Origin: a virus
Lineage: Duplodnaviria; Caudoviricetes
DNA length: 61,719 nt
Virus record (IMG/VR): IMGVR_UViG_3300030389_002537
Coordinates: 1-61,719 of that record
Direction: 5' to 3' (one strand)
Made by a program: the position numbers and the translations under genes. The notes beneath the pieces are model-generated. The model was not told the origin of the DNA, made no database searches, and saw nothing but the letters and a program-made list of their open reading frames with translations. Shown here piece after piece: positions 768 to 35,047 of the stretch; within the stretch, counting starts at the first letter, position 1, and each line of letters begins with the position of its first letter.

Positions 768-1606
768 TGAGTATGAATAAAGTAAAACTAAGCCAGATTA
801 TACGTGACTTCATCATCACTATGGATGATGATGATTACGTAAGCAATGCATCGGACATAGCTATACGTAACTTTGCGTTGAGGGGTATACGCGAAATAGG
901 TTTTGATCTTGGCAAAAAAATTAGATCTATAAAGTTAACTGTTCAGTCTAACGATACGATTATTTTACCAGATGATTTCGTAGACGTAAGCAAGATAGGA
1001 ATAGTTGGTGCTGACGGAGTTATACGTGCTTTAACAATGAATGGTAATCTAAACTATTCTAGAAAGTATGAGGTGGACTCTAATGGAACTGCAACAAACG
1101 AAACACACGACAGCGAAGAGGGACCGCTTAACATAGAAGCAAACTTCATAAACGACAGACAAGATGATAAAACAGCCACATCAACTGGAGATGTAGATGA
1201 GTTTAATGCTTTTGTGTTCGAAAATTATTTATTTCAGGGAGGTTTTGGTAGGCTGTACGGTGTAGGCGGTGGGTCTGCGCCTGGTGAGTTTAGGATAAAC
1301 CTTGATCAAAACAGAATAGAGATATCTGCTAACTCTGACTTTACTGAGGTTGTTATGGAGTATGTGGCGGATGAAGCTAGATCTACAGACCCAGAGGTTC
1401 ACGTTTACGCAGAAGAAGCTCTAAGATGTTATATATATTATAAACTTGTAGAGCGTAAAGCAAGCGTACCAGCTAATGAAAAGGCGAGAGCGCGTACAGA
1501 ATACTACAATGAGAGAAGAAAAGCAAATGCTAGATTAAGTCACTTTACAAAAGATGAAGCTCTTAAGACAATACGTAAGAACTTCATGCAGGCACCTAAG
1601 TTCTAA
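767..1606 (+). CDS. Putative tail tubular / ring structural protein
   Basis: 279 aa; ILPDDFV and VHVYAEEALRCYI motifs; coupled between adaptor and tail stabilisation genes. Confidence 0.6.
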   Translation: MSMNKVKLSQIIRDFIITMDDDDYVSNASDIAIRNFALRGIREIGFDLGKKIRSIKLTVQSNDTIILPDDFVDVSKIGIVGADGVIRALTMNGNLNYSRKYEVDSNGTATNETHDSEEGPLNIEANFINDRQDDKTATSTGDVDEFNAFVFENYLFQGGFGRLYGVGGGSAPGEFRINLDQNRIEISANSDFTEVVMEYVADEARSTDPEVHVYAEEALRCYIYYKLVERKASVPANEKARARTEYYNERRKANARLSHFTKDEALKTIRKNFMQAPKF

Positions 1607-11767: not shown

Positions 11768-14700
11768 ATGGCGAGTAAACTTTCACAAGATGATAATAAA
11801 TTCATCGACGACTTATTGAACGATAAGCAATCTTTTTTTTTTAAAAGGAGAGCCAAAAAGAAAGTCAATGCAAGGAGGGGGTCACGTAGACCTCTACGAT
11901 CAGGTTGTAGATTCGGGTTCGAACTATCAGTTCATTTCGGAGGATTCTTTATTGAATACGGTTCCCATAGATTTGGACTTGGGTATACCAGAACAGATAG
12001 ACCTAGATGAAGACTATGATTTTACAACTCATCAATATAACTGGAACGATCTAGACCCGTCATTTGGTCTTGGTGATTACGTATCGAACCGTAATGCATG
12101 GCAAGATAATGCAGACTATCACGTAGGTGGATACTTAGATCCATCTTACCAGCCAGTAGTGCCTAATCAAGAACACTACGACAACACAATAAGCGAAATT
12201 GTGGGGAGTGCTCCAATAGCTCCAGAACCTCTTGATGAAGGACTTATTAGTTTGCTACCTCCAGAAAGCAGACAATACAGAATTGATCTTTACAATAATT
12301 CTGTAATAAAGTACAATGAGGATCTTGAGGTATACAAAACCAATCTTGAGAGCGCTGACAATCAATACAATAAACAGTTTGTTCAACCTTTTAACGAATA
12401 TGTAGAGGCGGTCAACAACGACCACGAAAGAAATATAAAGTTAGACATGCAGGGTAAAAATGCATTGAGCTATATATTTAGAGTGGCGAGTCAAGATAGT
12501 ATTGATAAAATGATTCAAAAAGATTCTGAAGGTAATTTTATGAATCTTACTCCATTTGGAACAATGGATCTAAGTCTCTTGAAAATAGCACCGCTTAATA
12601 ATTCTCCGTTTAAATTACCCAACGGTGAGATTTTAGATAGAGGAAACATACAGCTTGAAGACTTATATCAAGGTACTGCTGAAGATTTTATATCCATAAT
12701 AAACGAAGAAGCTGAAGCTGAAAAACAAAAAGCTATAGCGACTTTAGATCAAAAAATTAGTGAGGTTCAAACTACATTAAATTTAATTAAGACTCCTAGT
12801 AAAAAGCGTTCATATGAAAGGCAGTTAGAAGATCTTACTGAGGAAAAACAAAATATTATGGATTCAGAAACTTTTGGTTTCGACATTACTGCCCGTAAGT
12901 ATTTTGAGAATTATGTTTTTAAAAACATGATGTTAAGCGAGGATGAGTGGAGGAGTTCTACGTTAATGTCTAGAGGTAGAGCTGACGATCCAAATATAGA
13001 TATGGAGGCTGCAGGATTCGGGACGTATAAAGATTATGTAGGTAGACTTGAGAAAAAAATATATGCAGATCTACTATATAATAAAGAAGGGTATGAGTTT
13101 GCTCAAGCCGTAGGTATGCCGCACTTTGGTCTTGTGCTTGATGAAGACGTAGCCGTTGGCGAAAGAAACGCTAGGTTTGCTGACGCAGCTTTAAGCTGGA
13201 GGCAGGGTGTTAATCAGCTTGAAGGTATGATAGATGCTACTGGCGCGACTTATGAGCAAATTTCAAATCTTGGTATACCTTTAGTTGGCGCTAGATCTCC
13301 TGTAAATCAATCTCCATTCCTTAATGCGCTTGATTTCGGTATAGGGGCCTTTAACTATTATGTAATGGGTGGCAGTGAGGATCCTACAGATGAAAATCAA
13401 GCTATAAGGGACGCATTGTTTAAGAGAGATCAAGAAAGAAATAGAAGAATTTCTGAACTAGAATCGCAAAAAACAAAGTTTGCAGTTACAGGTCAGCAAC
13501 TAGATCTTTTAGGATCGGATGCAATACTTAACGAAGGCACTCGTGTAGAACAAATATCTTCTATATTTAATCAAGCTAGAAGAGATATGGTCTTTAGCGA
13601 ACAGATAGATCCTGCGATACAGTCTATGCCTACGTCTTTAGCTGTAATGAGTGTAGCGTTAGCAACATCTGTGCCTACTGGAGGTAGTAGCTTGGTTGCA
13701 GCTGGAGCTGGAGGATTAACTATGGGGACTCTTGTAACAAACAGAACATATTACGACAGTTTTAGCAATCCTATATTCTATGAGAAAAACCCAGACGGAA
13801 GTGTAGATTGGAGTAAGTCTAAAATATCAGAAACAGAAAGACATGCTATGTCATTTATGCATGGTGGTGCAGAAGGATTAGGTGAGGGGTTAGGTACATT
13901 TGTTACATTTGGTGTAGGAAAATTTGCGCTTACTCCCGCTAAGTTTTCTCCTTACAGCATGTTTAAAGGTTCTCCAGGATCTGTTGGAGTAACAAAATTT
14001 AGTGGAGGTAGAAAGCTTTTAGATTATGGATTTGGATTAACTTATTCTATGGGTATTGGAGCTGGAGAAGAGTTTATAGCAGAAGGCACTACAGGTGTTG
14101 CTCAAATGGCTATAGATTCATATTTCTCTGGGGAAACATATACAACAGCTCAGTATGCTGAGAGATTTATGAAGGACGGCAAAATAGGAGCTTGGGCTGG
14201 TATGGGTATGACTGGAGGTGCATACAGTGTAGGTGTGGCCAAAGCTAATCTTTATGAAAAGAATTTCGCTCCTGAGGTATACTCTCAAAAAGTATTTGAT
14301 ACATACACAAACCAATTAACATCAAGCGGTTTCTTTTTTAACGGTGTTGATAAATCAAAACTTAAACAACTTAACAAAGCTTTAGCTACCATACGTAAAG
14401 AAACAGCATCGGGTGGTACTTTTATGAATCTTACCGATGTACAAAAAGATGCGGTTAAACTAGCTACAGAACTTACAGAAGAACTAAATACATCTCAAGT
14501 AAGAGATGGGCTTCTTTTGCAAAACTTATACGATTCTGGAAGAGGGGATCTTGTTGCAGAGGTTGTAGCCATAGACAACCGCCTACTATATTTAAACTCT
14601 GTATTATCAGAGTACACTCAGAATGAAAATGGACAGTGGTTTGATAGCGAGGGAAATCCTGCAGAAGATCCTACAAATATGGAGCTTTACAAGGCTGGTC

Positions 14701-17700
14701 AGCTTCTTTCAGAAACAACAAAAAAACAATACAGAGCTGAGATGAAGACGCTTCAGAATAGAATGGATCTTATAAGGACCATGGCTGAAGCTGACTTTAT
14801 ACACTCACCAGACTACACTCCAGCAGCTAGAGAAGTAGGTGTGGGCAACTGGAGGGAGAACGAATACTACAACACAGAGGATGGAGCAAATTCATACTCA
14901 GAGGTTGTATACGACCAAGAGAAAGGTGAGGTTCAAGGTAATGTTAACCAAGAATATTCTGATATTATAAACAGGTATTCAGAGGCTGCTGCTGGACAGG
15001 CTAAAATAGTCCAGCACACTACAAGAGAATCTATGCTTGCTGTAACAGGAGATGCATCAGCTCTTGCATTCTACAAAGAAGCTACTATAGAGGAAAGAAA
15101 AAGCGGTACGATAGATGAGCTTCATGTGTATGTAGGAGAGGGTCAATCAGTGGAAAGTCTAGAAAGAGAAATGATTCACGAGTTTGGTCACTTCGCTTTA
15201 AGGGACATTGTTGCAGACAAAGAGACAAGAGAGAGTTTAGTTTCTCAAATATTAGAAATAGATAATGACAACGTAAAGAATACAGTTAATCAAGTCAGAG
15301 AAGCTTACCCTGATGTTAGTCAAGAGGTTCTTGAGATAGAGATAATAAATCACTTTATGCAGGACGTTGCTACTGGACAATTAAGTCAGACGGATATTAC
15401 GCAAGGGTTTGAGTCGTGGGGCTTGAACATAATGAATGCAGCTGGTAAGCTAGGTGTGACTAGCAGCGACGCTATACTAAGGGATAAAGATTCTGTTGTT
15501 AAGCTTGCCGCTAAGTATAGCAACTTTGTAAACAGAAACGGAGGTATTACAGGTATAAGAACTCCTGGTCAGGCACAAGCCGTCAAAACACAAAGACAAG
15601 CTGAAGCTGCTATGCAAGAGTCTAAAACATCAGACGGTGCTGGATTAGCTGCAAAGAAGTTTAACTACCTTGAGAACACCAAGATATACTATACAGAAGT
15701 GGTGTCTAAAGAAGGTAGAGACGCTATAAGTAGAATATCATCTGTAAGAGAAAGGACTGCAGATCTAAGTGATTACAATCACTTCAGAAACCTATATGCT
15801 AAACTAACAGGTAATGGTGTAGCTCCTTCTAGAATGAAGGATATATACTTCATAAAGGACGGTAAGAGATTTGATGTAAAGCCTCCAAGACCTAAGACAA
15901 ATAAAAAAGGTGAGGTTTTACAAATGGAGGTTCCTAAGAGGATGACCTACAATGAGAGAAAACTTGCTATGGCTGTAGAGACACAAGAGTATGAGGATAT
16001 GTTAGCTCAAGAAAGAGCAGATCTTATGGGGGAGGTTGGAGATCTTTGGAAAAACAATGATAAATCGATTAGTCTTTATACTAACTTTCTTGATTTCAAC
16101 CCTACAATAAAAGGTGAATTTGATTTAGGTCCTAGAAGTAGAACTATTGAGTCGATAAACTCTGACATAGAAGATTATGTTATTGCAAAACAAAACATAC
16201 AGGCTCTTATAGATTCAGATATAACAGAAGACGATCTTAAAGCTTTAGCGGGTAGAGATAATAAAATTAGCAGGAGTGAACATCCTAACATATTTAATAT
16301 GATGGGGTTACGTAAAGCAGAAACACATACACAAAAGGCGGACCGCCTCACTAACAGCATGGAAGGTAAAGGTGCTGTATGGCAGCTACTACCAAAAGAT
16401 TCACCTTCTTATGAGAAACGTATACCTGATCTAAGATTAGCTACGCCTGCTGAACTTCAGTATGCATCAGATAGGTTTGATAGAATAGAGGATGAACCTT
16501 TAGATGGTGACTTGCTTGATATAGACACATCAGAACCTACAGGGCTAGCTGCAAGATCTATAAATTATGATAAGAGAAAAGCTATATTTAAAGGTGTTAC
16601 TGCTGAAAACTTTAATGATTTTGTAAACGGCAAAATAAAATCTGGTAGCATACAAAGCTTTGAAGACCTTAAGAATTTAATGAGAGAAGCTAACATGCTT
16701 GATTCAACAGGAAAGCTTCGAATGAGTCTTCACAACGTAGATAGAACTATGGTTGGTCCTGGATCACTGCCTGTACATGGAGATACTTTTAACTTCCATT
16801 TATCTGGGGGTCCTATGGGCAACTCTGTTGCGGCTATGCAAGGTGCTAATATTGGTCACAACACCACAACAAGACAGTCTAGCATTAACATTACAAATTA
16901 TGCAGACAAAGCAAAACAAAATAACGATACATACTTATTAGGCCTTAAGTTACTTTCAGAAGAAAATAGCTTTGGTAATCCTCAGGTTTTTAAGGTTGCT
17001 GTACAATACACTTTGCAGTATTTACAAAACGAAAAAACGTCAGAAGCTATACAAGATTTTCTTGTCGATAGCTTTAATTCTTTCTTCAATAATAAATCTT
17101 ACGTAGCTGGATTAAGAACTACGAAAGAAGATGCTGAAAAAGTAATTAGTTTATTGGGTAAAAAGTTTCAACCATTTGGAATGGTGGATGGCGTAACTAT
17201 GCAAACTGGATCTATGCAGATAAATTCTAGACAAGGACTAATTAATTTCTTAGAAGAAATATCAAACGCATCTTTAGATGAAATCACATCCAATACCAGC
17301 TTTGCAGACAGAGCTTCCCTAGCAGGAAGATTGTTTAAAACCAGAGTGGGTTTATCTGCTCAACCTGGATTTGTAAGTCAAGAGCAGTTTTTAGATGCGG
17401 TAAATCAAAACGAGTATAAAGGTGTAGAAAACGGAGCTGTTGTTAACGCAACACTAATGGACGTTAATAATACAAACTTACACGGAATTAAAGGTGTATC
17501 AGGTCACTTAAAAGGTGTTGGGGCTAATGCTCTTGCGGAGTCTACATCATACAATTTTGGTGTTACTGGACACATAACAACATTCCATTTTGAAAAACCA
17601 TTATCTAATGAGGGTGTACAAGAGATGCACTCTAGACAGCAAACTAGCAGCGATTTCTTAGCATCACGTAGATTACCAGGCAGAATATACACACAAGGTC

Positions 17701-20570
17701 TTTCAGCTTGGGAACAGTCTACGCCCACCGCTTACGGAGCAACGCTTCAAAGGCTTGCTACAAGATTACAAGATAGATTTAGCGACGTGCTACTTCTTCA
17801 GCAAGATATAGAAGTTTTCAGAGGAAGTAAAGTTCCTGAGTCTCAAGACTTTGAGATGGCTATGGATATCATGTACGGTAAAGTTCGTACAGATCTAGAG
17901 GCCTTGGAGGTTGTACTTGCAGAAATACAGAGCTCAATGAACACTGCAAACCTTACGGCAGAGCAGGTATCTGATTATCTATATGCTAAGCACGCAGAGG
18001 AACGTAACAAAAAGATAGAGAGCACTAGACCTGAAATGAAGGATGGTTCTGGTATGACTACAGAAGAAGCTGGAGAGATAATACAAGAGTTAGAAACTCC
18101 AGAAATGGTAGCCATATCTAAAATGGTGTATTCAGTAATTGAAAACACGCGTAAGACTATGGTTCAATCTGGATTAGAAACCTCACAAGTTATAGAAGTT
18201 TGGGAAGGATTGTATAAAAACTACGTGCCTCTTAACGGATTATCTGCAGATGAAATAGACGGAAACAACTCATCGTATCCAACAGGCGGTGCTGGTATGG
18301 CTATCTACGGTAAAACCACAAAAGCTGCAAAGGGTAGAGCAAGTAAAAGCGGAGTAAATCTTATAGCCAATGTAATTATGCAGAACGCTATGGTACAGCA
18401 AAAGGCTCGTAAAAATCAGGCTATGATGTCTCTGTACAATCTTGTAAAAAATAATCCAAACAAAGAGGTGTGGGGCATATTCTCTACAAAAAAACCCATG
18501 CAGAAAACCAACAAAGAGGGCAAGAGGGTTAACATGAATGAGTTTGAGATGAAGTCAGACAGACGCATGGTGCCTATAAGGGTGAACGGAGAGCAACACT
18601 TTATCTTTTTCAAAAAATCAGACTATGCAGATGCTTTAAACGGCATGACTGAAGAGAAATTATCTAAAGTATTTAAGGTGATGTCAGGTCCTATGACGTT
18701 TATGCGTAATGCATTCACGCAGTACAACCCGTCGTTCTTTGTAGGTAACTTCTTTAGAGATATACACGGTGCGGTCTTTAATGTTATGTCTGAGATTGAG
18801 AGAGAGGGCGGTATCCTTCAGGGTTACGACATTAATACTAAGAAGTTTACTTCGTCTCTTGTTAAAAGATCATTCTCTGTGCTTGGACACTTATTAAAAG
18901 ACAGTGCGTTTAGCAGAGAGATGAGCCCAGAGATGAGAGAGTATCTTACAGAGTGGGAGGCTGCAGGCGGTAGAACAGGATTCTCTTATTCTGAAAGTAT
19001 AAACAACGTAATAGAAAATCTTAGGGTTGATGCAGAAACTCCAGGTAAAGTCAAGGCTGCTACTCAATATGCTTTTTCAAAACCAAAACAATTTTTCCAG
19101 TATGTAGCTAATGTAAACGAAGCATTCGAGAACAGTATAAGGCTGGCTGCATATATAGAAGCTAGAGAGGCAGGGGTAACTAAGCAAAGGGCAGCTCAGC
19201 TATCTAAAAATATCACCATAAACTTTAACAAGTCTGGTGAATTGGGACCGTCTCTTAATCAGACATTCCTGTTCTTTAACGCTGCGGTGCAAGGTGCTAA
19301 CAGATTTAGCAGAACATTCGCAACATTAAAAGCAGAACTACCAAATAATCCAGACGAAACTACAAGCTGGAAGAACAGAGTTACAAGCGCACAAAAAGTT
19401 GCAGCTGGTATGGTTTTACTTTCAGGACTTCAGACTATATTGAATATGTCTTTATCTGGAAGAGATGATGATGGAGAATTATACTACAATAAAATACCAG
19501 AGTATAAAAAAGAGAGAGGATTTATTATATGTTACGGATCAGGACCTAATGACTACATCTCTATACCTTTAGGATACGGCTACAATATGTTTAATGTTTT
19601 TGGCATGCTGCTAGCGGAGGTATCTGCAGGTGCTAGACATTACGACGACGCTCTTGTTGACTTTGGTTTATCTTCTTACAGCGCATTCTCTCCTATAGCA
19701 ATGGGTAATACCGACGAGCTTGGACCAGCAATTTTAAAGTCACTTACCCCAACAGTAGCAAAAGCTCCTTTAGATGCTTTCGCTTGGAACGAGACTTATT
19801 TTGGTGGTAAAGTTTTCCAAGAGCAGTTCCCGTTTGGGGCTGAGACTCCAGTATCAACAATGTCGTTTAGATCACCAGATGTTGTACAAGATTTATTTGT
19901 AGGGCTGCATGAAATGACTGGCGGTAGAACGTATATTGACGGAACTCTTGAAGTGAATCCAGATCCTTATTACTACATAGCTTCATCATATTGGGGCGGA
20001 GCTGGTGATTTTGTAATGGATGTAACAACCTTAGGTAGAAGTGCTTACGTAACTGGAGCTAGAAAGTATAATGCTCTTATAAGCACTAGAACTAACGAAG
20101 AGTTTATAGAAACCCTATTCAAAACTCCTCAAGAAGACAGGCCAGTTATAAGATTCAATGACGTACCTATTGTTAAAACTATATATGGTGCAGGAGCATC
20201 TAGGTTCTATGACTTTGATTTATACGAAAAGAATGTATACGAGGTTTTACAATTTGATAAGGAACTTCGTAAAGGTACTGTTGAATCAAGAAAAGGGGTT
20301 GACTTTACAGGAATACAAGCTTTAAAGAAAGAGTATTTAAAAGTAGAAGAAGCTTTAAAAGTTATAAGAGAAGAAAAGAAAAAAGCTAGGGATATTGAAG
20401 ACTATATTGATAGAAGCAACAGAGCGTATCAATTGCAAGAAGCTGAGCGTCAGTTAGTAACTATATTCAATGCGAAATATTATCAACTAAGAGGTCAATA
20501 CCTCGATCCAAAACCACAAGGATTTATACCTATAAACGATATTAGAAAAATACTAGGAACAGATGAGTAA
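11768..20570 (+). CDS. Giant polyvalent ejection protein (zincin metallopeptidase motif, LPD38-like C-terminus); true start probably 11768 with a frameshift at the T10 tract
   Basis: 2900-aa ORF 11868-20570; HEFGH at 15177-15191; Gly-rich membrane-like segments; C-terminal NFNKSG, FLFFNAAVQG and IPLGYG motifs; removing one T from 11833-11842 fuses ORF 11768 in frame. Confidence 0.7.
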
Positions 20571-28507: not shown

Positions 28508-28921
28508 TTAGAAATGTTCTAAGCAAGAAATTTCTCTTTTAATTTTAAGGTACATGCCAAGACTTTGCATAAGCTTGACTGCACCTGACTTCACCCCATG
28601 TGCTGCTCTCTCGTAGTCCACCTTAAAGGTTTGTTCTGTTCCGAGCAGCTCTTCGATTAACTCTTCGCCTGCATAACTAGATGCTAGTTGATCAAGTAAA
28701 TCAGTCATTGTGGAATCAGTTACCTCTATAAATATCTTTACGATATCCTCTGGTGTCCATTTCTTCCACTCATCGTACCCAAACTTCTGTATGTCTATCT
28801 TGCACAGATTACCTGCACAATCTACTATATCGAAGTCATCATCATCTTCACAGTCATCTATAAAGATGTCTATGTATCGTAGTGCTTCATCTTCTGTAAT
28901 CAAAATCCAAAGTTTTTGCAC
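28508..28921 (-). CDS. Acidic hypothetical protein
   Basis: 137 aa, D/E-rich; non-ATG start. Confidence 0.6.
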   Translation of the reverse strand: MQKLWILITEDEALRYIDIFIDDCEDDDDFDIVDCAGNLCKIDIQKFGYDEWKKWTPEDIVKIFIEVTDSTMTDLLDQLASSYAGEELIEELLGTEQTFKVDYERAAHGVKSGAVKLMQSLGMYLKIKREISCLEHF

Positions 28922-29097
28922 AAATCGTACACGTTTGACATTTTAGCTACTAGCTTGTGGTTAGAAATTGTTCTATCTCTATCTTTCCTAGCAGTTTCAT
29001 ATTCTTTCACGAACAGCTTGATAAGATGCATTGCATCTACATGCTTGGGTGTTAGCTGCATGGTTGGGGGGAATAAATATTCTTTTGTTTTACTCAT
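28900..29097 (-). CDS. Hypothetical protein
   Basis: 65 aa; preceded by AATCCAATAAAG leader motif. Confidence 0.6.
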   Translation of the reverse strand: MSKTKEYLFPPTMQLTPKHVDAMHLIKLFVKEYETARKDRDRTISNHKLVAKMSNVYDLCKNFGF

Positions 29098-29172
29098 CTT
29101 TATTGGATTGATATGTTAAATAAATAGCTGTCACTATATAGAACAGTGCAACTGGAATTAGTACTTGTAAAT

Positions 29173-29643
29173 TCATGTGAATTTTTGTGTTTTAATTGTT
29201 TCATTCTTGTTAGCCACGCTGTGTTTCTCACCAATGTAGTAGTTCCAGTACGCATCGACTGAACATTCTGACTTGTACTTATCGGGCATACATTGAGGCG
29301 GTTGCTCAAATGACTCATGTGGTATGTCATCGGGCGCACTGAACAAAGAATCCTCGCATTTACTTATTGTCATGTGTTCCCTACCGTATTTCCAACGATA
29401 TATTGTGCCTAACGACATCATGTGTTCGTACAGCCAATCGTAATGCAGTGAGTTCTCACGCACCCACTTGGTAGATGGGTGGTTGTAGTGCGCTTTCTTG
29501 TATGGCACGTTGTCGCCATTACCGTAGTGATGGTGTGCTGTGCATAGCATCTGTGCTGATTCAAGTATCATCTTTACTACATGTTTGTCATACATGTAGC
29601 TAGCGGCTACGCTTGGATCTTCGTGTAAATAAAATATATTCAT
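29173..29643 (-). CDS. Pyrimidine dimer DNA glycosylase (T4 endonuclease V)-like family protein
   Basis: MNIFYL..DKHVVKMILESAQML..HYNHPS..PQCMPDKYK..AYWNYY motifs. Confidence 0.75.
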   Translation of the reverse strand: MNIFYLHEDPSVAASYMYDKHVVKMILESAQMLCTAHHHYGNGDNVPYKKAHYNHPSTKWVRENSLHYDWLYEHMMSLGTIYRWKYGREHMTISKCEDSLFSAPDDIPHESFEQPPQCMPDKYKSECSVDAYWNYYIGEKHSVANKNETIKTQKFT

Positions 29644-29657
29644 GTTAATTAAATTAG

Positions 29658-29753
29658 AGTGAGCAAGAGGAATCGAACCTCAATGCATAACCAATAAAAG
29701 CAGTCAATCGGGTAGGGGCATCACACCCTAGCGGATCTTGCCAGACGCTCACT
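29658..29753 (-). ncRNA. tRNA-like structured RNA, about 95 nt (not a canonical tRNA)
   Basis: Acceptor-like stem GTGAGCG/TGCTCAC; T-arm GAGG-TTCGATT-CCTC; internal hairpin TAGGG/CCCTA; intergenic. Confidence 0.55.
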
Positions 29754-29763
29754 AAGTATGTCG

Positions 29764-29946
29764 TTACATACCAATCAATATCTCAAACGCTTTGTCCATA
29801 GCATAGGTGCGTTGCTGTGTCATCGTACCGCATACTTGTGGTTTCGGTAACAATATAGATGCATCATCAATAGTGTATGTGGTTGCACCTCTTTGTATAG
29901 CGTTAGCTATCTGTCTTTGGTGGTGTAGTCTTTCTTGTGTAGTCAT
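29764..29946 (-). CDS. Hypothetical protein
   Basis: 60-aa ORF in the early operon. Confidence 0.55.
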   Translation of the reverse strand: MTTQERLHHQRQIANAIQRGATTYTIDDASILLPKPQVCGTMTQQRTYAMDKAFEILIGM

Positions 29947-29978
29947 AGTGTGTTATTTTGCTTTCATATATCCATCGC

Positions 29979-30206
29979 TTAGTCCTCGACTGACGTACCC
30001 GTTTCGGTATCATCATAAGTATCGTCCTGAGGCTCTTTGCTATGCTCTGCTTTATGTAAATCATTTAATTGCATTTGTAGTTGTTCCGCTATGATACGCC
30101 ATTGCATAGCGGATTTCAACAGAGTTGTCTTGGTGTTTGCCTTGAGAACAGTTTTAATCTGCTCCTTTGTCCACCCCTCTAGTGGGTTAAATTCTTGTTC
30201 ACTCAT
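29979..30206 (-). CDS. Hypothetical protein
   Basis: Start MSEQEF at 30206 overlaps the upstream stop (ATGA). Confidence 0.55.
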   Translation of the reverse strand: MSEQEFNPLEGWTKEQIKTVLKANTKTTLLKSAMQWRIIAEQLQMQLNDLHKAEHSKEPQDDTYDDTETGTSVED

Positions 30207-30403
30207 TGATTTTGTACTTTGTTTAATCTTTTTAACTTCTCGTTGTTGCTTAAGGTTTCCCAATCTTTTGGCTTTATTATGCCAGGCGTAGCAAAGACAA
30301 TTCTTTCTTTGCGCTTGATTATTTCTTCTACCTTAGCATCGATTGGTGCGCTCATGTCTTGTAGCATCATGAACATCTTCATAAAATTTGCTGTGTTATT
30401 CAT
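30203..30403 (-). CDS. Hypothetical protein
   Basis: 66 aa; GIIKPKDW motif; coupled. Confidence 0.6.
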   Translation of the reverse strand: MNNTANFMKMFMMLQDMSAPIDAKVEEIIKRKERIVFATPGIIKPKDWETLSNNEKLKRLNKVQNQ

Positions 30404-30671
30404 TGTTATATTGGTTTATAAATTCTATTACTGCCTTGTACATCATGTCTATCCCCCCACTTGACATAGGTGTAATTACAACTATATCGTTTTTGTTATA
30501 TATAGTAACATCACCATCATTTCTATTTACCCAATAGCCAAGACTTTCAATCCTCTCCACTACAGGCATAAGCCAATCCCACGAATTGTGGTATGTGTTG
30601 CCGTGAGCATCACATCTATATTCGTGATTCATAAATTCTGCTATTAGTTTGTTATTGTTAGTGAGTTCCAT
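30396..30671 (-). CDS. Phage protein with YHxSWDWLMPVVE motif
   Basis: NNKLIAEFM..YHNSWDWLMPVVERIESL, recalled as common in Bacteroidetes phages. Confidence 0.65.
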   Translation of the reverse strand: MELTNNNKLIAEFMNHEYRCDAHGNTYHNSWDWLMPVVERIESLGYWVNRNDGDVTIYNKNDIVVITPMSSGGIDMMYKAVIEFINQYNNE

Positions 30672-30831
30672 CGTTTGTTATTTCTTTTATTGCGTCAATA
30701 AGCATATCTCTAGCGTGTGTCGGATCGGACAGCACCGCCTGTACTAGCCATTCAAATTCGTCCTCCATGTTATATCCGTTGCGTATAATATCAACGTACC
30801 TCTCTGCTCGTTCTTGTATCTTGTAACTCAT
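30658..30831 (-). CDS. Small hypothetical protein (57 aa, not in ORF track)
   Basis: MSYKIQERAERYV...DGTH read manually; AAACCAA leader. Confidence 0.5.
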   Translation of the reverse strand: MSYKIQERAERYVDIIRNGYNMEDEFEWLVQAVLSDPTHARDMLIDAIKEITNDGTH

Positions 30832-31060
30832 TTTGTTTTGGTTTAATTGGTTTTGTAATTAGTTCTGCTAGTTCGTGCATACTGAATGATGCGAACCCTG
30901 ATTGTGTTTTTGGTTTACGTTGTCTGTCCTTCATATTTGTTAAAATTACTTACTATTATCTCGCACATAGTTCTCAAAGTGCGGTCTGGCATGTCGTCAA
31001 AGTGTGTAAGCAAGTCCTCTTGCACTCGCTCTCTTAGTTCTCGTAGTTGATGTATTGTCA

Positions 31061-31333
31061 TTATCTCACATTTTGTGTGTTAATATTCCATTCGTCTAGT
31101 ATGTCAAGCACTTTCTCGTGTATACACATTGTGCCGTCATAGTCTAAAAGTTCTTTACCTTCAAGCCATAGCCCACCTTCTTCGTGATATAACATACCAC
31201 CTTCGTCTACATCGCATAACTCAAACCAACCCCACTCATGCTCTGTGTCTATGCTTACCTCTAATTGAATCTCTGCGTCCTTATCTAGCCTACCTATGTC
31301 TTCGGTAAATGTTATTGTTTTATTGTATTTCAT
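31061..31333 (-). CDS. Acidic hypothetical protein
   Basis: 90 aa; GWFE..EGGLW..LLDYDG. Confidence 0.65.
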   Translation of the reverse strand: MKYNKTITFTEDIGRLDKDAEIQLEVSIDTEHEWGWFELCDVDEGGMLYHEEGGLWLEGKELLDYDGTMCIHEKVLDILDEWNINTQNVR

Positions 31334-31518
31334 ATCATTGTAATGTTTCCGTTTGTGTCTATGTAACCCGCATCGATCAGAGCTGATGCAGTTCGCCCGT
31401 AGCTACCTTGTAGCGTCCATGCTTTACCACTGCTGATTAGCTCAGCGAATAGCTCTAGCACTCCCGTGTCGTCTAGAAGACCGCACTCGAAGTCGATTAT
31501 TTTGTCTGTTATATTCAT
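31330..31518 (-). CDS. Small phage protein with AWTLQGSYGR motif
   Basis: Likely start MNITDK at 31518; motif recalled as common in phages. Confidence 0.65.
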   Translation of the reverse strand: MNITDKIIDFECGLLDDTGVLELFAELISSGKAWTLQGSYGRTASALIDAGYIDTNGNITMI

Positions 31519-31772
31519 GATGTTAAGTCCCAAATTAGTTCTACGTTTTCTATAACTTCGAGTTCTCTGTCAGTACATGTTACTCCGTCCTTTACGGGGT
31601 ATATATTAGCTTGTAAGCCAAAATCTTCTCCGTTCTCTAAGAGTACTTCTCCGAATACGTTGATGTCTATGTATGGGCATAAACCCCACCATATATCTCT
31701 GCTTTCTTCGAAGTCTCCTGCGGGTATCACTAGTTCCCCGAATAGTTTTGATTTGATTAGTAATGATTTCAT
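31515..31772 (-). CDS. Hypothetical protein
   Basis: 85 aa; ATACATC-ATG leader. Confidence 0.6.
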   Translation of the reverse strand: MKSLLIKSKLFGELVIPAGDFEESRDIWWGLCPYIDINVFGEVLLENGEDFGLQANIYPVKDGVTCTDRELEVIENVELIWDLTS

Positions 31773-31780
31773 GATGTATA

Positions 31781-31990
31781 TTATTTAATTGATTTTGTAA
31801 ATTCCTTCCATGCCATGCACTCGGTGCTACCTAAGTCTATGGCTATCTCTATGTTGGATATGTGTGTCCATGCATCGTCAGAGTGTATAGTCTGCTCGTA
31901 CATACTTTTACCGCTTTCGAGGTGGTCTATGACTACCTGAGCGTCGTCAATTATCATCTTCATTCGATGTATTAAATCTTCTCGTTTCAT
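31781..31990 (-). CDS. Hypothetical protein
   Basis: 69 aa; AAACCAATAAAACATACATC-ATG leader. Confidence 0.6.
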   Translation of the reverse strand: MKREDLIHRMKMIIDDAQVVIDHLESGKSMYEQTIHSDDAWTHISNIEIAIDLGSTECMAWKEFTKSIK

Positions 31991-32000
31991 GATGTATGTT

Positions 32001-32234
32001 TTATTGGTTTACTTTTGCTTTTACGGATAGCATTTCTGTGTCGCATTGCTCAAGCTCTGCTTCACCTAGCGTATCCCATATCTCATCGTATAGATACTCA
32101 TATCTCAGGTATTCGTCGCCTTCGAGCTCGTAGTTTGTTATTCTTTCAACGGCTGATGGCGTAAGTTCGTCAGGTAAAGCTACCTCGATTGTGGTGGTGT
32201 ATGTACGCACCACTTCTATTTCAAATAGTTTCAT
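32001..32234 (-). CDS. Acidic hypothetical protein
   Basis: Likely start MKLFEIEV at 32234; ends NQ-stop. Confidence 0.6.
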   Translation of the reverse strand: MKLFEIEVVRTYTTTIEVALPDELTPSAVERITNYELEGDEYLRYEYLYDEIWDTLGEAELEQCDTEMLSVKAKVNQ

Positions 32235-32236
32235 GA

Positions 32237-32362
32237 TTATTGGTTTTTTGTCCATGTTTCGTATGCAAAGTCTATTGCATCGTTGATTTCTACTGCCTCT
32301 TCACGAGTGATTGTGTACCCTTCCATTCGGTACACTTCGATAATGTTATCTATTACGTCCAT
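32237..32362 (-). CDS. Small hypothetical protein (41 aa, not in ORF track)
   Basis: MDVIDNIIEVYRMEG...WTKNQ; ATACATC-ATG leader. Confidence 0.55.
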   Translation of the reverse strand: MDVIDNIIEVYRMEGYTITREEAVEINDAIDFAYETWTKNQ

Positions 32363-32390
32363 GATGTATTAATTGGTTTTCGATTGGTTT

Positions 32391-32465
32391 GATTCAAGTG
32401 GGTAGTAGCACGCCATATAGCTACTAATTACGTGGTTGGTTTCGCCTAACCTCGACCATTGAATC
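32391..32465 (-). ncRNA. Structured 5' leader (multi-stem junction)
   Basis: Closing stem GATTCAA/TTGAATC; inner stems TAGTAGC/GCTACTA and GGTTAGG/CCAACC; starts just after a promoter. Confidence 0.45.
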
Positions 32466-32471
32466 GGACTG

Positions 32472-32503
32472 CTAAGATACGACATAGAGTCCATAAATCC
32501 AAA
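32472..32503 (-). promoter_or_regulatory. Early promoter (TTTG-N20-TATCTTAG)
   Basis: -33 and -7 elements at Bacteroidetes spacing; AT-rich upstream. Confidence 0.65.
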
Positions 32504-32527
32504 TTTATTTTTGTAATAACGTAGTTA

Positions 32528-32830
32528 TTAGTATAGCTTTTTGACCTCCATGTCTAACTGTTTAGCAGCATAGTTGATGTGCTTAGATGTAGTGGGTGAA
32601 TGGTGCTTTGGTACGACTAGCGTGCCTACACCCTCCCACCCAAAAGCAACGTCAGTTTCGTAGCTCTTGACTATGATTCGCCACCCATGCCTACCGTTGT
32701 ACTCTTTACGCACCGATAGGTTTTGCTTGTACTTTGGTAAATCGATCTCGCGTGTGTGCGGTACACCCCACAGGTGTCCATCATCTCTGTACATTTCGTA
32801 CACTTCGTCTGCTCTTTCTAGTAATCCCAT
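32528..32830 (-). CDS. Phage protein with SYxT and SPTTSKHIN motifs
   Basis: 100 aa; motif recalled as common in phage early regions. Confidence 0.65.
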   Translation of the reverse strand: MGLLERADEVYEMYRDDGHLWGVPHTREIDLPKYKQNLSVRKEYNGRHGWRIIVKSYETDVAFGWEGVGTLVVPKHHSPTTSKHINYAAKQLDMEVKKLY

Positions 32831-32832
32831 GT

Positions 32833-32976
32833 TTATTGATATTTGTCAAGTTTAACATCGCTGTATCCACGCACACTAAATTCGTGTGCAAGCATAGTAG
32901 CATCATCTAAGGTTAGTAAGTAGTCGTTTACTTCTGTACCACCTACCCACACTGAATAAATTTTTTCTGTATCCAT
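32833..32976 (-). CDS. Small hypothetical protein (47 aa, not in ORF track)
   Basis: MDTEKIYSVWVGGTEVNDYLL...; AAAACCAATAAAAC-ATG leader. Confidence 0.6.
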   Translation of the reverse strand: MDTEKIYSVWVGGTEVNDYLLTLDDATMLAHEFSVRGYSDVKLDKYQ

Positions 32977-32988
32977 GTTTTATTGGTT

Positions 32989-33138
32989 TTAAAAGTTAAT
33001 ATCTAATTTTGCTTGTTCGCAGAATGCCTCTGCCACTAGGCTTACGCCTTCTGTGTCCTCACACCATGTGAAGTACTCGTATGCTAGTTCTAGCTCTTCA
33101 AAGCTAAATCCTCTGTATGGGTTGAATATTCTACTCAT
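32989..33138 (-). CDS. Small acidic hypothetical protein
   Basis: Start MSRIFNP at 33138, ATGA-coupled to upstream mini-gene. Confidence 0.55.
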   Translation of the reverse strand: MSRIFNPYRGFSFEELELAYEYFTWCEDTEGVSLVAEAFCEQAKLDINF

Positions 33139-33218
33139 GATGCTATCGCCATTGTGCATACGCTTACTACAAAGATTGTCCATGTGCTTAGCACGATTGT
33201 TATTAGTTTATCCTTCAT
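33135..33218 (-). CDS. 27-aa membrane peptide (not in ORF track)
   Basis: MKDKLITIVLSTWTIFVVSVCTMAIAS; AAACCAATAAAAA-ATG leader; coupled at both ends. Confidence 0.5.
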   Translation of the reverse strand: MKDKLITIVLSTWTIFVVSVCTMAIAS

Positions 33219-33221
33219 TTT

Positions 33222-33389
33222 TTATTGGTTTAAATTGTCATATTGTTTAGCTAGGTATTCGATTTCTTCAGGGTGTATGGCTACATTCAGGTACTCCGAT
33301 ACGTTGATGTAGAGCATACCACCTACCTCTTCGCTAGGCGTTTCGTGGTGTACTTCAAGCACGAATGATGCTTTTTCTAATTGTGTCAT
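33222..33389 (-). CDS. Small hypothetical protein (55 aa, not in ORF track)
   Basis: MTQLEKASFVLEV...DNLNQ; ATGA overlap with upstream gene. Confidence 0.55.
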   Translation of the reverse strand: MTQLEKASFVLEVHHETPSEEVGGMLYINVSEYLNVAIHPEEIEYLAKQYDNLNQ

Positions 33390-33823
33390 AGCAATATTTC
33401 TTTTTGGTTTTTACAGTCGTAGATTGCGATTTCGCCATGCTCTTTCGCTAGTTTCGTAGCTACGTCAAGGCTATACAGGTGTTGCACAAGGTCGAAGTAT
33501 ATCTGCCCCTTGTGTATCCATGTACCTACACCAATTCCAGAGGCGTACTTGTACATACGGTATGTGTTTTGGTGTTCATCAAGTAGCGTGTGATACTTAT
33601 CCCATAGCTTTTTGAACGCTTTGAAGTGTGCGCTTACGTCAGGGTATGCACTGCCGTCAACCTCTGCATACATAGTGGTTGGTTCAGTTAAACCACCTAC
33701 AATGTAACCTTCGGTTGGGTTGGTTGTGCCATCTGCAAGGCGTGTATATCCACCGTCTATGAGCGTATTAGCGTACGGTATACGTTTCTCGTATTCTTTC
33801 AGTAAATCCATAGAATAGTTCAT
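33386..33823 (-). CDS. Early phage protein of unknown function
   Basis: GGYT..PTEGYIVG..GTW..YFD..A.LA..GEIAIYD pattern. Confidence 0.65.
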   Translation of the reverse strand: MNYSMDLLKEYEKRIPYANTLIDGGYTRLADGTTNPTEGYIVGGLTEPTTMYAEVDGSAYPDVSAHFKAFKKLWDKYHTLLDEHQNTYRMYKYASGIGVGTWIHKGQIYFDLVQHLYSLDVATKLAKEHGEIAIYDCKNQKEILL

Positions 33824-33846
33824 GATGTATAAAATTTTGGTTTGTA

Positions 33847-33900
33847 AGAGGGTTTATATACTACTCTCATAAATGAGAGGAGTAGTATATTAAACCTTCT
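33847..33900. other. Long imperfect hairpin (possible RNase III site)
   Basis: AGAGGGTTTA-TATACTACT...AGTAGTATA-TTAAACCTTCT inverted repeat. Confidence 0.55.
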
Positions 33901-33908
33901 AAAGGTTA

Positions 33909-33954
33909 GAGCCAAGAGGGGATTCGAACCCCTTCGCACCCTGTGTGCTTGGCT
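33909..33954 (-). ncRNA. Minimal tRNA-like element (acceptor stem + T-arm only)
   Basis: AGCCAAG/CTTGGCT 7-bp stem stacked on AGGGG-TTCGAAT-CCCCT; only 14 nt in place of the D and anticodon arms. Confidence 0.6.
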
Positions 33955-33964
33955 TGTGTGGGTG

Positions 33965-34360
33965 TTACGCTACCTGTGGCGCACCGTCCATGAGTGCCTT
34001 GCAGTAGCGAACTGCGTCCTCAACAGAGTAGCCGAGTGAACGTAGTTCACTGAATTCAGGTAGGGCATTCACCTCTGCAACCGCTTCGGGTATGAAGTTT
34101 TCAGCTATCGCTGACTGCTTTTGCGCTTGCGCTTCGAGCTTTTGGTTTTTCGAAACCTTCGCTTTTGCCTTGCGCTTTGGCTTGCGCTTCGGTGCAGGTG
34201 CTACCTCTTCGAGGTTAGAGATAAAGTTTGCTAGAGTCTCCATAGACTCTGACAACTCCTTAAGGAGTTTCACAGCGTGTGCCTTGCGCTTGCTTGTTGG
34301 GTTGAACTTCGCTTGATTTACGGCTTTCTTTGCCTGCTTGATGAGTGTGCTTGTAAGCAT
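33965..34360 (-). CDS. First early gene, Lys/Ala-rich hypothetical protein
   Basis: 131 aa directly after the early promoter; ATACATC-ATG leader. Confidence 0.7.
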   Translation of the reverse strand: MLTSTLIKQAKKAVNQAKFNPTSKRKAHAVKLLKELSESMETLANFISNLEEVAPAPKRKPKRKAKAKVSKNQKLEAQAQKQSAIAENFIPEAVAEVNALPEFSELRSLGYSVEDAVRYCKALMDGAPQVA

Positions 34361-34408
34361 GATGTATAAGATTTTTGGTTTACGTCAATTCCGAATGAAT
34401 CGACACCA

Positions 34409-34440
34409 CAAAGATATGGAAATAAAACACCGATGTCAAG
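34409..34440 (-). promoter_or_regulatory. Major early promoter (TTG-N20-TATCTTTG)
   Basis: Perfect Bacteroidetes/Flavobacterium consensus; followed by hairpin GTCGATTC/GAATTGAC. Confidence 0.8.
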
Positions 34441-35047
34441 TTTTTGAGGGATTAATTTCGTGCGCGATTTCTCCCGCAGGAAGGTTACGAAGTAACCCGC
34501 GTGGAAACAGGCGAAAATTCGGGCTATGCCGCGAGCGCTTGCGTGTGCATGACGCGAGGCAGATTTTGTATTGATAATTCATGGTTTGTATTGCAATTAA
34601 ATCGCCAATAAATGCTAACAATGAGGGGGTAATTATCAACAATAAAACTGAGGGTTGTGCGCATGCGTGTTAGAGTTATACTCTAAGACGTGTATGGTAC
34701 GGGGGTGATTGTCACACACTTACGTCGAACCGTGCCCAATTTCGTGTATTTGCGATGCGGTTAAACAATGAGTTTAAGTTTGATGCACTACTTACTTGGG
34801 TATCAGTGAGTTACCGTCGTACACTTGGGCATGTCACACGTCCATATGCGAAGGGGGGAGGTCAAAATTTTCGATTTTTTTACAAAAAATTTGCTTTTTA
34901 AATTACATATAATCCCCACCCTAAACATTTCTCGCCGTTTTTTCCAGGGGGATCCGTATTTTTTTTGCGATGGTTATACCCCCTTCCCATTCTAAAGCAT
35001 TGATAAGCGGTCAATTAGACTATTTTGCTTAAATCAGCACTTTAATC
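34441..35047. other. Non-coding region between divergent promoters (candidate physical termini or origin)
   Basis: No credible ORF; CGCG-rich patches, G runs, A/T tracts, palindrome TTAGAGT-TAT-ACTCTAA at 34670-34686. Confidence 0.5.

Follow-up and report, generated by a model that had tools for sequence, protein, structure and literature searches.

We describe here a conserved structured RNA element encoded on the minus strand of a complete virus record of 61,719 bp (IMG/VR record IMGVR_UViG_3300030389_002537, Caudoviricetes; hereafter the window, meaning the whole stretch of DNA that was analysed), which exposes in a hairpin loop the complement of a sequence found just before the start codons of several early genes. 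The element, 95 nucleotides (nt) long, has a conserved fold and a displayed loop whose complementarity to early-gene leaders is specific in strand and position; the loop co-varies in part with those leaders across lineages, and the element co-occurs with the leader motifs. The reading that we favour, at a rough probability of 0.55, is that of a small RNA cut from the early transcript which would mask the initiation regions of several early genes, in a manner reminiscent of the C4 RNA of phages P1 and P7.

The complementarity is apparent in the window itself. The 11-mer AACCAATAAAA has four exact copies in these 61.7 kilobases (kb) against 0.09 expected, a number reached in none of 100 shuffles; the plus-strand copy is the element itself (29689-29699), and the other three lie on the minus strand before ATG codons. 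A preliminary description of this DNA had claimed that the seed of the element is the exact complement of a motif preceding the starts at 31990, 32976 and 33218, that partial matches precede those at 32234, 29097, 30403, 30831 and 32362, and that all the leader copies are opposite in orientation to the element. All of these sites were recovered (Table 1), with shorter matches before ATGs 32362 and 29097, and no leader-type copy other than the element was present on the plus strand of the window. Leader copies often occupy the entire 12-nt gap between a stop codon and the next start. When the 19-nt hairpin sequence was shuffled 1000 times, the ATG-adjacent match score of the window was reached once. 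The loop of the genome G005 differs (UUUUGAUUUGGUUUA) and finds its own complements in that genome, namely a 14-mer that overlaps an ATG, 10-mers at ATGs and a 13-mer 1 nt 5′ of an ATG (0 of 1000 shuffles); its UUUUGAUUUGGUUU matches the leaders AAACCAAAUCAAAA-UG (14 nt) and UAAACCAAAUCAA-gAUG (13 nt). For the whole set of homologous loci, the own target of a locus was defined as AACCA followed by the complement of the loop middle and AA, and was sought in 146 kb upstream of 70 loci. Such sites numbered 25 on the transcript strand versus none on the opposite strand, and all 25 end 1–11 nt before an ATG. The energies of the five best loop–leader duplexes were also added up in genomes that are complete or long, and the total was set against those of 200 shuffled loops; the shuffles that did as well numbered 3 in G000, 10 in G003, 0 in G005, 1 in G007, 5 in G002, 2 in G011, 1 in G013 and 0 in G012, as well as 45 in G010, where the upstream region is missing.

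The element belongs to a family whose structure is strongly supported by covariation in five helices. Retrieval through the neighbouring gene gave 80 related loci, only a few of which carry the element upstream (L003, L008, identical to L009, and L011), and the closest relative (L002) is devoid of it. Pattern scans of IMG/VR gave 15 member loci and L314, and a metagenome pattern scan gave 118 stretches; the 106 elements that were parsed represent 76 loci after de-duplication. A covariance model, R1, recovers 14 distinct IMG/VR members at E≤2.4e-10. In the family alignment of 14 sequences, 95.1% of the cells are paired and 13 of 25 pairs are changed on both sides, a figure as high in none of 500 shuffles, while slid controls of the same alignment are 36–57% paired; these values are to be read with the fact that the alignment was fitted to R1, which favours the structure. 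Ten pattern stretches in 185,579 species genomes included no member. Blastn of two members against 50,697 phage records returned either T-arm matches to Streptomyces phage transfer-messenger RNAs (tmRNAs) only (6 records) or nothing, and R1 gave no match in the cultured relatives MW202828, NC_055852 and NC_055853. A whole-genome search for the element with R1 was negative in G004 and G015, two complete relatives, and positive in 5 of 5 known holders.

From 5′ to 3′, the element comprises an acceptor-like stem strand (P1), an unpaired UCUGG with 3–5 further nt, a stem P2 around a hairpin P3, a (U)GAC segment, a hairpin P4, a T arm, the second acceptor strand (P1′) and a discriminator, which is A in 10 and U in 4 members, CCA being mostly unencoded. 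P1 is 100% paired in 14 of 14 sequences, its pair 3 being G-C in all of them and its pair 6 C-G in seven and U-A in seven. The first five acceptor pairs are invariant in the family, an invariance partly built in because the main scans fixed GTGAG at the 5′ end, although a scan without fixed acceptor also gave only GUGAG-type members among the matches listed; likewise, the invariance of UCUGG is partly owed to the search pattern, most members having come from collection scans that required TCTGG. Changes on both sides affect 3 of 4 pairs in P2, 4 of 5 in P3 and 3 of 4 in P4, and most members retain the P3 loop GUGAUG. The T-arm helix (helix 5) is 91% paired, with two pairs changed on both sides, and its loop UUCGAUU is invariant. 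The family P4 stem has 3–5 base pairs (bp) and occurs as CUGU/ACAG, CUAC/GUAG, CUGA/UCAG, CUGCA/UGCAG and CUACG/CGUAG besides CUGC/GCAG. Its loop of 13–20 nt consists of a U-run, a variable middle (AU, AUU, AUA, GAUU, AAU, CAU and others) and UGGUU; the U-run and UGGUU are present in all members and UGGUU never varies. This loop is unpaired in the covariation-supported fold, so that the seed appears as an accessible and conserved segment. The acceptor-like stem, the T arm and the seed flanked by UGC...GCA were thus found on the minus strand just where the preliminary description had placed them, and its expectation that homologues should keep the seed was borne out, since the family retains it as the loop of the covarying P4 hairpin. 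The single-sequence fold of the element is unremarkable (z = -1.0) and its minimum-energy structure differs from the covariation-supported fold; the real fold is visible only through the homologues. Immediately upstream, a hairpin of the P0 type (at least 5 bp, ending 1–6 nt before G1) is present in 55 of 75 loci, 40 of them with an AACG loop, and has 18 distinct 5′ stems.

Table 1. Parts of the small RNA element and copies of its target motif in early-gene leaders, with positions in the window
Feature	Sequence or pairing	Position	Strand	Remarks
Small RNA element		29658..29752	-	95 nt, from G1 (29752) to discriminator U (29658); R1 score 114.4 bits
P0 hairpin	GUAUGU-AACG-ACAUAC	29756..29771	-	ends 3 nt 5′ of G1; contains the stop of the upstream open reading frame, 29766-29764
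P1 acceptor-like stem, 5′ strand	GUGAGCG	29746..29752	-	pairs with UGCUCAC 29659-29665; 7 bp, one G.U
Unpaired segment	UCUGGCAA	29738..29745	-	analogue of the tmRNA D loop; UCUGG invariant in family, many members have UCUGGAUUCG
P2, enclosing P3	GAUC 29737-29734 with GAUU 29709-29706	29706..29737	-	
P3 hairpin	UAGGG 29730-29726 with CCCUA 29717-29713	29713..29730	-	loop UGUGAUGC, 29725-29718
P4 hairpin	family stem CUGC/GCAG	29683..29703	-	in the window UGC/GCA only is paired; 13-nt loop UUUUAUUGGUUAU, 29699-29687
Seed in P4 loop	UUUUAUUGGUU	29689..29699	-	flanked by UGC...GCA
T arm	(U)GAGG-UUCGAUU-CCUC(U)	29666..29682	-	
Leader copy	AACCAAUAAAA	33220..33230	-	1 nt 5′ of ATG 33218
Leader copy	AACCAAUAAAA	32978..32988	-	1 nt 5′ of ATG 32976; loop duplex -10.9 kcal/mol
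Leader copy	AACCAAUAAAA	31999..32009	-	8 nt 5′ of ATG 31990; leader also has ACAUCAUG
Leader copy, one mismatch	AACCAAUUAAA	30842..30852	-	before ATG 30831
Leader copy, one mismatch	AACCAAUAUAA	30406..30416	-	before ATG 30403; duplex -8.5 kcal/mol
Leader copy, 9 nt	AACCAAUAA	32237..32245	-	before ATG 32234

In a subtype of the family, comprising L206, L212, L401 and related members (for instance L206, 13786-13894), the junction linking P3 to the 3′ strand of P2 contains another stretch resembling the seed, GAUUUGGU(U), so that a single RNA of this subtype may offer two anti-leader copies.

Across lineages, the middle of the loop tracks the leaders, and this tracking is real but incomplete. Leader-like sites were classed by the 4 nt that follow AACCA and were compared with the loop class of their locus. 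Loci of class AT, the type of the window, have 16 own-type sites, plus 16 of the ATTA type. Class ATA has five own-type sites, ATA-type sites elsewhere amounting to none in classes AT and GATT and one in ATT; class GATT has three, GATT-type sites elsewhere amounting to one in class ATT and none in the others; and class AAT has one. The own-type diagonal totals 26 versus 10.5 expected, which 2 of 5000 shuffles of the locus labels reach, and without the class of the window it totals 10 versus 3.3 (6 of 5000 shuffles); the loci of one class being related, these shuffles and the Fisher tests given below overstate independence, the data corresponding to about 3–5 independent lineage events.

The element and the leader motifs also go together in the genomes. 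Among the leaders of called open reading frames (ORFs) within 3 kb upstream, AAACCAW is present in 56 of 396 in element-bearing loci versus 6 of 375 in 48 element-less relatives (Fisher p 1.7e-11), and in the same leader set CATCATG is present in 28 of 396 versus 1 of 375 (Fisher p 9e-8). G004, which carries no element, has neither motif in any of 22 leaders. Within seven element-bearing genomes, both motifs cluster upstream of the element, over a distance of 7 kb: AAACCAW is found in 32 of 142 leaders there versus 7 of 310 elsewhere, and CATCATG in 15 of 142 versus 3 of 310. The contigs of G006, G009, G010, L206 and L212 end just upstream of the element and are uninformative for leaders.

CATCATG brings in a secondary and tentative idea, that the P3 loop may make a second, weaker contact, with CAUCAUG as start context. 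The loop (U/G/A)GUGAUG can pair, G.U included, with CAUCAU(G), and leaders have AAACCA... 5′ of CAUCAUG, which is the order required for antiparallel binding of P4 (3′) and P3 (5′), as in the leader of ATG 31990, AAACCAAUAAAACAUACAUCAUG. CATCATG and AACCA co-occur in leaders (2×2 table 13, 15, 49, 319; odds ratio 5.6), and in classes with GUGGUUC as their P3 loop CATCATG stands at 0 of 48.

The setting of the element bears on how it might act. The large terminase of the window shares 41–48% identity with its counterparts in Flavobacterium (elemo), Cellulophaga, Tenacibaculum and Maribacter phages (92 records), and 20 of 20 sequencing runs with parts of the window are marine, seawater, plankton or estuary metagenomes. 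The start codons of the window are preceded by A-rich leaders without Shine-Dalgarno (SD) sequences, a composition that fits a Flavobacteriia host, and the family occurs in uncultured marine phages akin to the Flavobacteriia podophages, probably with Flavobacteriia as hosts. According to a published analysis (PMC6847099), Flavobacteriia ribosomes disregard SD sequences, initiation depending on an unstructured leader and an A at -3, and messenger RNA (mRNA) structure tunes initiation in this clade. The element is intergenic, 11 nt 3′ of a stop codon (TAA 29766-29764) and 14 nt 5′ of an ATG (29643); its upstream neighbour is a 60-amino-acid (aa) ORF (29764-29946) and its downstream neighbour a Pyr_excise-like gene (PF03013). 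It marks the border at which about 25 small early ORFs, none from a known family, give way to genes for an exonuclease, a primase/helicase and a ribonucleotide reductase; it lies at the distal end of the small early gene block and appears to be co-transcribed with it. No minus-strand terminator-like site was detected within 28800-34700, sigma-70-type promoter sites were at chance level (16 found versus 16.5 expected), and the Bacteroidetes -7 motif, with the consensus TAnnTTTG, lies upstream of the element in 1 of 67 loci versus 3 of 335 control windows. Elsewhere in the window, two giant ORFs were observed on the plus strand, 1606-7854 (2082 aa) and 11868-20570 (2900 aa). In the element-less loci L010, L030, L033, L035, L036, L041, L042, L064, L069, L076 and L079, a gene for a transfer RNA (tRNA), tRNA-Met (CAU), lies in this same early region, 1.7–2.8 kb upstream of the Pyr_excise-like gene, and L010 (1618-1770) has a tRNA-Arg (UCU) besides the tRNA-Met (CAU).

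From sequence we infer the expression of the RNA, its processing, its pairing in vivo and the direction of its effect, which in the masking scheme would be as follows. RNase P would cleave at G1, leaving an upstream mRNA that ends in the conserved P0 hairpin; we infer this origin of the 5′ end because of the acceptor/T-arm stack and because neither a terminator nor a promoter signal is found nearby. A 3′ nuclease would then trim behind the discriminator. The single-stranded P4 loop of the released RNA would pair with AAACCA-x-AAAA, which fills the 10–15 nt before several upstream early start codons, and the duplex would block initiation, since Flavobacteriia ribosomes, without SD pairing, need an unstructured initiation region. 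Transcription of the distal part of the operon would in this way bring about the joint shut-off of these early genes. The 14 nt that separate the element from the following start codon (29644-29657, minus strand) read CUAAUUUAAUUAAC, in the L008 type CUAAUUAAUUUAAC, and this spacer is conserved even where the downstream gene is a different one; after 3′ processing of the element it would form the entire 5′ leader of the downstream mRNA.

Several observations weigh against the masking of early leaders by this RNA. The loop–leader duplexes are AU-rich and weak, at about -9 to -16 kcal/mol, and the formation of 11 or more pairs within a 13-nt hairpin loop would require the short P4 stem to open. 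The exact-match test was non-significant in G003, G007, G001 and G008, and the duplex test gave no enrichment in G001 (129 of 200 shuffles as good) or in G008 (69 of 200). Class ATT, with 17 loci, has one own-type leader versus five of the window type, and class CAT together with the G008 type has none of its own, to which the small number of independent lineage events mentioned above must be added. As G001, the G008 type and the ATT class lack clear own-type targets, UGGUU may also serve another partner, and some requirement unrelated to pairing could keep UGGUU and the U-run invariant. The association with leaders depends on how these are counted: discrimination appeared only with counts at called ORF starts, and a loose count (AACCA with any ATG within 24 nt) gave 0.92 per kb in element-less relatives versus 0.3–1.7 in the element-bearing classes, that is, no difference. 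The contact by the P3 loop gave a weak result in a direct test: 56 of 1000 shuffles in G000 and 43 of 1000 in G003 were as good, and the test was non-significant in G005, G007, G001, G002 and G008. No RNA run is listed among the 20 sequencing runs containing parts of the window, and the discrete species of about 95 nt, its excision by RNase P/Z and the repression stand as predictions. Finally, the tRNA-like character announced in the preliminary description holds for the acceptor stem and the T arm and fails for the cloverleaf, since the element has no D stem and is called by neither ARAGORN nor Rfam. Taken together, the loci as a whole show the co-variation of seed and leader anticipated in that description, whereas those of class ATT, G001 and the G008 type do not; its regulatory reading finds partial support, the conserved seed and the strand-specific, ATG-adjacent complements speaking for it and the weak or failing tracking in some lineages against it.

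The resemblance to tmRNA leads to another way of looking at the element. ARAGORN reported no tRNA and no tmRNA gene in the window, none at the homologous elements and no tag peptide, and Rfam gave no match in the window at gathering scores and none of any family at E≤10 on 29400-30000; an annotation as tRNA or tmRNA was rejected on these negative results for the window. The Rfam tmRNA model (RF00023) nevertheless gives end-to-end matches to 3 of the 14 distinct members, with its middle 300 or more positions deleted (L008/L219, L011/L207 and L206; 29.1 bits, E 1.7e-8; 27.2 bits, E 1.1e-7; 19.5 bits, E 6e-4; gathering score 47), the matched parts being the acceptor, UCUGGAUUCG and the T arm, whereas the copy of the window and seven further member loci have no match. 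With the tRNA-like domain of tmRNA the family shares a 7-bp acceptor stem, the lack of a D stem, an unpaired segment of the UCUGGAUUCG type and a T arm of the form GGGGG-UUCGAUU-CCCCC. Unlike tmRNA, it measures 95–125 nt versus about 360 nt, with no room for the usual pseudoknots; the G3:U70 alanine identity pair is absent in 14 of 14 members; there is no conserved tag reading frame or stop, and loop indels shift the frame; and an additional hairpin, P4, stands between P2 and the T arm. A tag-peptide reading of the P4 region was rejected: UGA, UAG and UAA align in some members, but the frame is unconserved. Canonical tRNA (RF00005) is matched in the acceptor stem, the UUCGAUU T arm, the discriminator position and the four arms leaving a junction, but the element has no D stem and 8–9 unpaired nt after the acceptor, and the arm in the anticodon position has a stem of 3–5 bp and a loop of 13–20 nt instead of a 5-bp stem with a 7-nt loop. 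The scaffold thus resembles, in sequence and predicted fold, a D-stem-less tRNA-like domain of the tmRNA type with two hairpins, P3 and P4, added, the element itself not being a tmRNA. One survey (PMC9004378) places complete tmRNAs, in one or two pieces, in about 2% of phage genomes. In the literature that was searched, we found no description of a phage RNA consisting of the tmRNA tRNA-like domain alone, or of a tRNA-shaped anti-leader RNA. In unrelated viral contigs we also observed RNAs of about 85–115 nt in which a 7-bp acceptor is followed directly by GUCUGG and a T arm closes the molecule; they are weak R1 matches (E 2e-5 to 0.1), located at L082 528-639, L091 10318-10429, L125 1670-1782, L177, L089 549-656, L095 and L150 1337-1428 and 1947-2029, and may represent further small-RNA families resembling the tRNA-like domain of tmRNA.

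The element could thus be a mimic of that domain, acting as a decoy or hijacker of SmpB, of the ribosome, of an aminoacyl-tRNA synthetase or of CCA-adding or tRNA-modifying enzymes, with its P3 and P4 loops conserved for contacts with protein or ribosome and its leader complementarity of secondary importance. The end-to-end RF00023 matches point in this direction, as do the invariant UCUGG(AUUCG), T loop UUCGAUU, first five acceptor pairs and loop UGGUU, together with the exclusive return of GUGAG-type members among the listed matches of the acceptor-free scan. However, the RF00023 scores lie far below 47 bits, the acceptor invariance is partly built in by the scans that fixed GTGAG, G3:U70 is missing throughout, the discriminator varies, CCA is mostly unencoded and no phage SmpB was found; moreover, a mimic predicts neither the 25 versus 0 strand- and ATG-specific complements nor the co-variation of loop and leader, and we regard it as unlikely, if worth keeping in mind. 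Slightly less credit is given to the idea that the element is processing punctuation and nothing else, RNase P/Z cutting the early mRNA, with its P0 3′ end, from that of the DNA-metabolism genes and releasing an RNA without function. Its intergenic position between a stop and a start codon, at the boundary of the early and the replication-repair genes, agrees with it, and so do the P0 hairpins just upstream in most loci and a second, unrelated tRNA-like minihelix of 46–48 nt with covarying acceptor, found in a different intergenic region of this operon in five genomes. That same minihelix shows that an acceptor and a T arm suffice for a processing signal, and the P3 and P4 hairpins, the invariant loop letters, the leader complementarity and the co-variation would be left unexplained. 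Punctuation is compatible with antisense masking as an additional role beside it. In the window the minihelix occupies 33909-33954 (minus strand, 46 nt), just 3′ of the stop of the ORF 33965-34360, and consists of a 7-bp acceptor AGCCAAG/CUUGGCU, a GCAC-ACAGG-GUGC hairpin region, a GGGG-UUCGAAU-CCCC T arm and the discriminator C; G011, G013, G001 and G002 have conserved it, its acceptor covarying (AACAUAG/CUAUGUU), and ARAGORN and Rfam leave it uncalled at 33909-33954. Directly 3′ of it, at 33855-33907 (minus strand), lie a small hairpin AACCUU-UAG-AAGGUU, conserved in five genomes, and then a long inverted repeat rich in A and T (UAUACUACUC..CAU / AUGAGAGUAGUAUA), after which come ..CCCUCUUACAAACCAAAA.. 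and the following ATG. Ahead of their first early genes, G005 and G007 carry similar repeats together with a AUACACUACCUCUUAA box common to both; these features may mark an early promoter or a transcript boundary.

Two further explanations dispense with a role for the displayed loop. The 11-mer might be a DNA site for a phage or host DNA-binding protein, for example an early-gene regulator, its inverted copy in the RNA gene being accidental and its variants arising through co-evolution of protein and site. Repetition of the motif before many early genes and the existence of lineage-specific variants would suit such a site, but the sole inverted copy falls in a covarying hairpin loop in every member, the other copies have one orientation and lie 1–11 nt before an ATG, often filling the gap between stop and start, which is not a promoter distance, and no candidate regulator was identified; we hold this to be very improbable. 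Even more remote is a decayed relic of a tRNA or tmRNA, or a fragment of an integration site, whose AT-rich leader match arose by chance. ARAGORN and Rfam do not recognise the element, its seed is AT-rich, and by chance alone each genome gives about one match of 10 nt or more with shuffled loops; yet compensatory changes in five helices and strong purifying selection are seen across about 76 loci, both acceptor strands are present, the pattern scan of the 185,579 species genomes found no member, and the complementarity recurs with different loop variants; the covariation contradicts such a relic. An integration-site or prophage relic had also been considered and was rejected, as none of the 10 pattern stretches in species genomes is a member. 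No rival considered here explains both the co-variation and the strand- and ATG-specific complements.

A more speculative extension, to which we attach a low probability, retains the pairing and changes its outcome. The tmRNA-type domain might have been kept for delivery to the ribosome, as in tmRNA, by SmpB and EF-Tu of the host or by a substitute from the phage, the P4 loop serving as a long 'anticodon' for the AAACCA-x-AAAA leader; the RNA would then be a sequence-addressed device akin to trans-translation, which evicts or blocks ribosomes at chosen phage starts, and not a passive mask. The thought arises because acceptor, UCUGG and T loop are conserved beyond the need of a processing handle and because the pairing sites abut the start codon.

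Should the masking of early leaders by the P4 loop prove true, the element would represent a natural instance of a tRNA/tmRNA-like scaffold with a regulatory seed built into one of its arms, a design comparable to the "tRNA scaffold" of engineers and hinted at by the C4 RNA of P1/P7, here in lytic-type marine phages and directed at a whole early-gene set. It would likewise be an RNA counterpart of protein repressors of early translation such as RegA of T4, and a model of gene-set control in Flavobacteriia, where ribosomes ignoring SD sequences depend on unstructured leaders. With about 76 loci, a fold, loop classes and matched leader variants, the idea is directly testable by compensatory mutations.

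Among known systems, C4 RNA (RF01695) is the closest in function. According to the published account (PMC5320573), C4 is co-transcribed with the genes that it controls and released by RNase P, and two of its loops pair with the mRNA, at the ribosome-binding site and 5′ of it, which blocks translation. The element described here is likewise phage-encoded, with loops complementary to initiation regions of apparently co-transcribed genes, and has two conserved loops, P4 strongly and P3 weakly supported, whose targets stand in antiparallel order on one leader. The resemblance is functional only: the element has no sequence or structure match to C4 (0 Rfam matches at E≤10), and C4, with three stems and about 77 nt, lacks a T arm, whereas the element has an acceptor stem, a T arm and the tmRNA-like unpaired UCUGG. 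In its temperate phage-plasmid, C4 precedes what is essentially a single target operon, whereas the element lies downstream of many candidate targets, in phages of an SD-less host clade, no integrase having been noticed in the phage of the window; processing and repression, demonstrated for C4, are predicted for the element. In the tRNA–microRNA-encoded RNAs (TMERs) of murine gammaherpesvirus 68, a viral tRNA-like module is joined to a base-pairing regulatory RNA and tRNA-processing enzymes set the ends. The physical coupling of a viral tRNA-like module to a pairing regulator is common to both, but TMERs are eukaryotic transcripts of RNA polymerase III with a separate microRNA hairpin downstream, whereas the pairing loop of the element is an arm of the fold itself. 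The T4 RegA protein provides a precedent for the coordinated shut-off of many phage early genes, which it brings about by occluding AU-rich initiation regions; RegA is a protein that recognises RNA, whereas the repressor proposed here would itself be an RNA and would act by base pairing.

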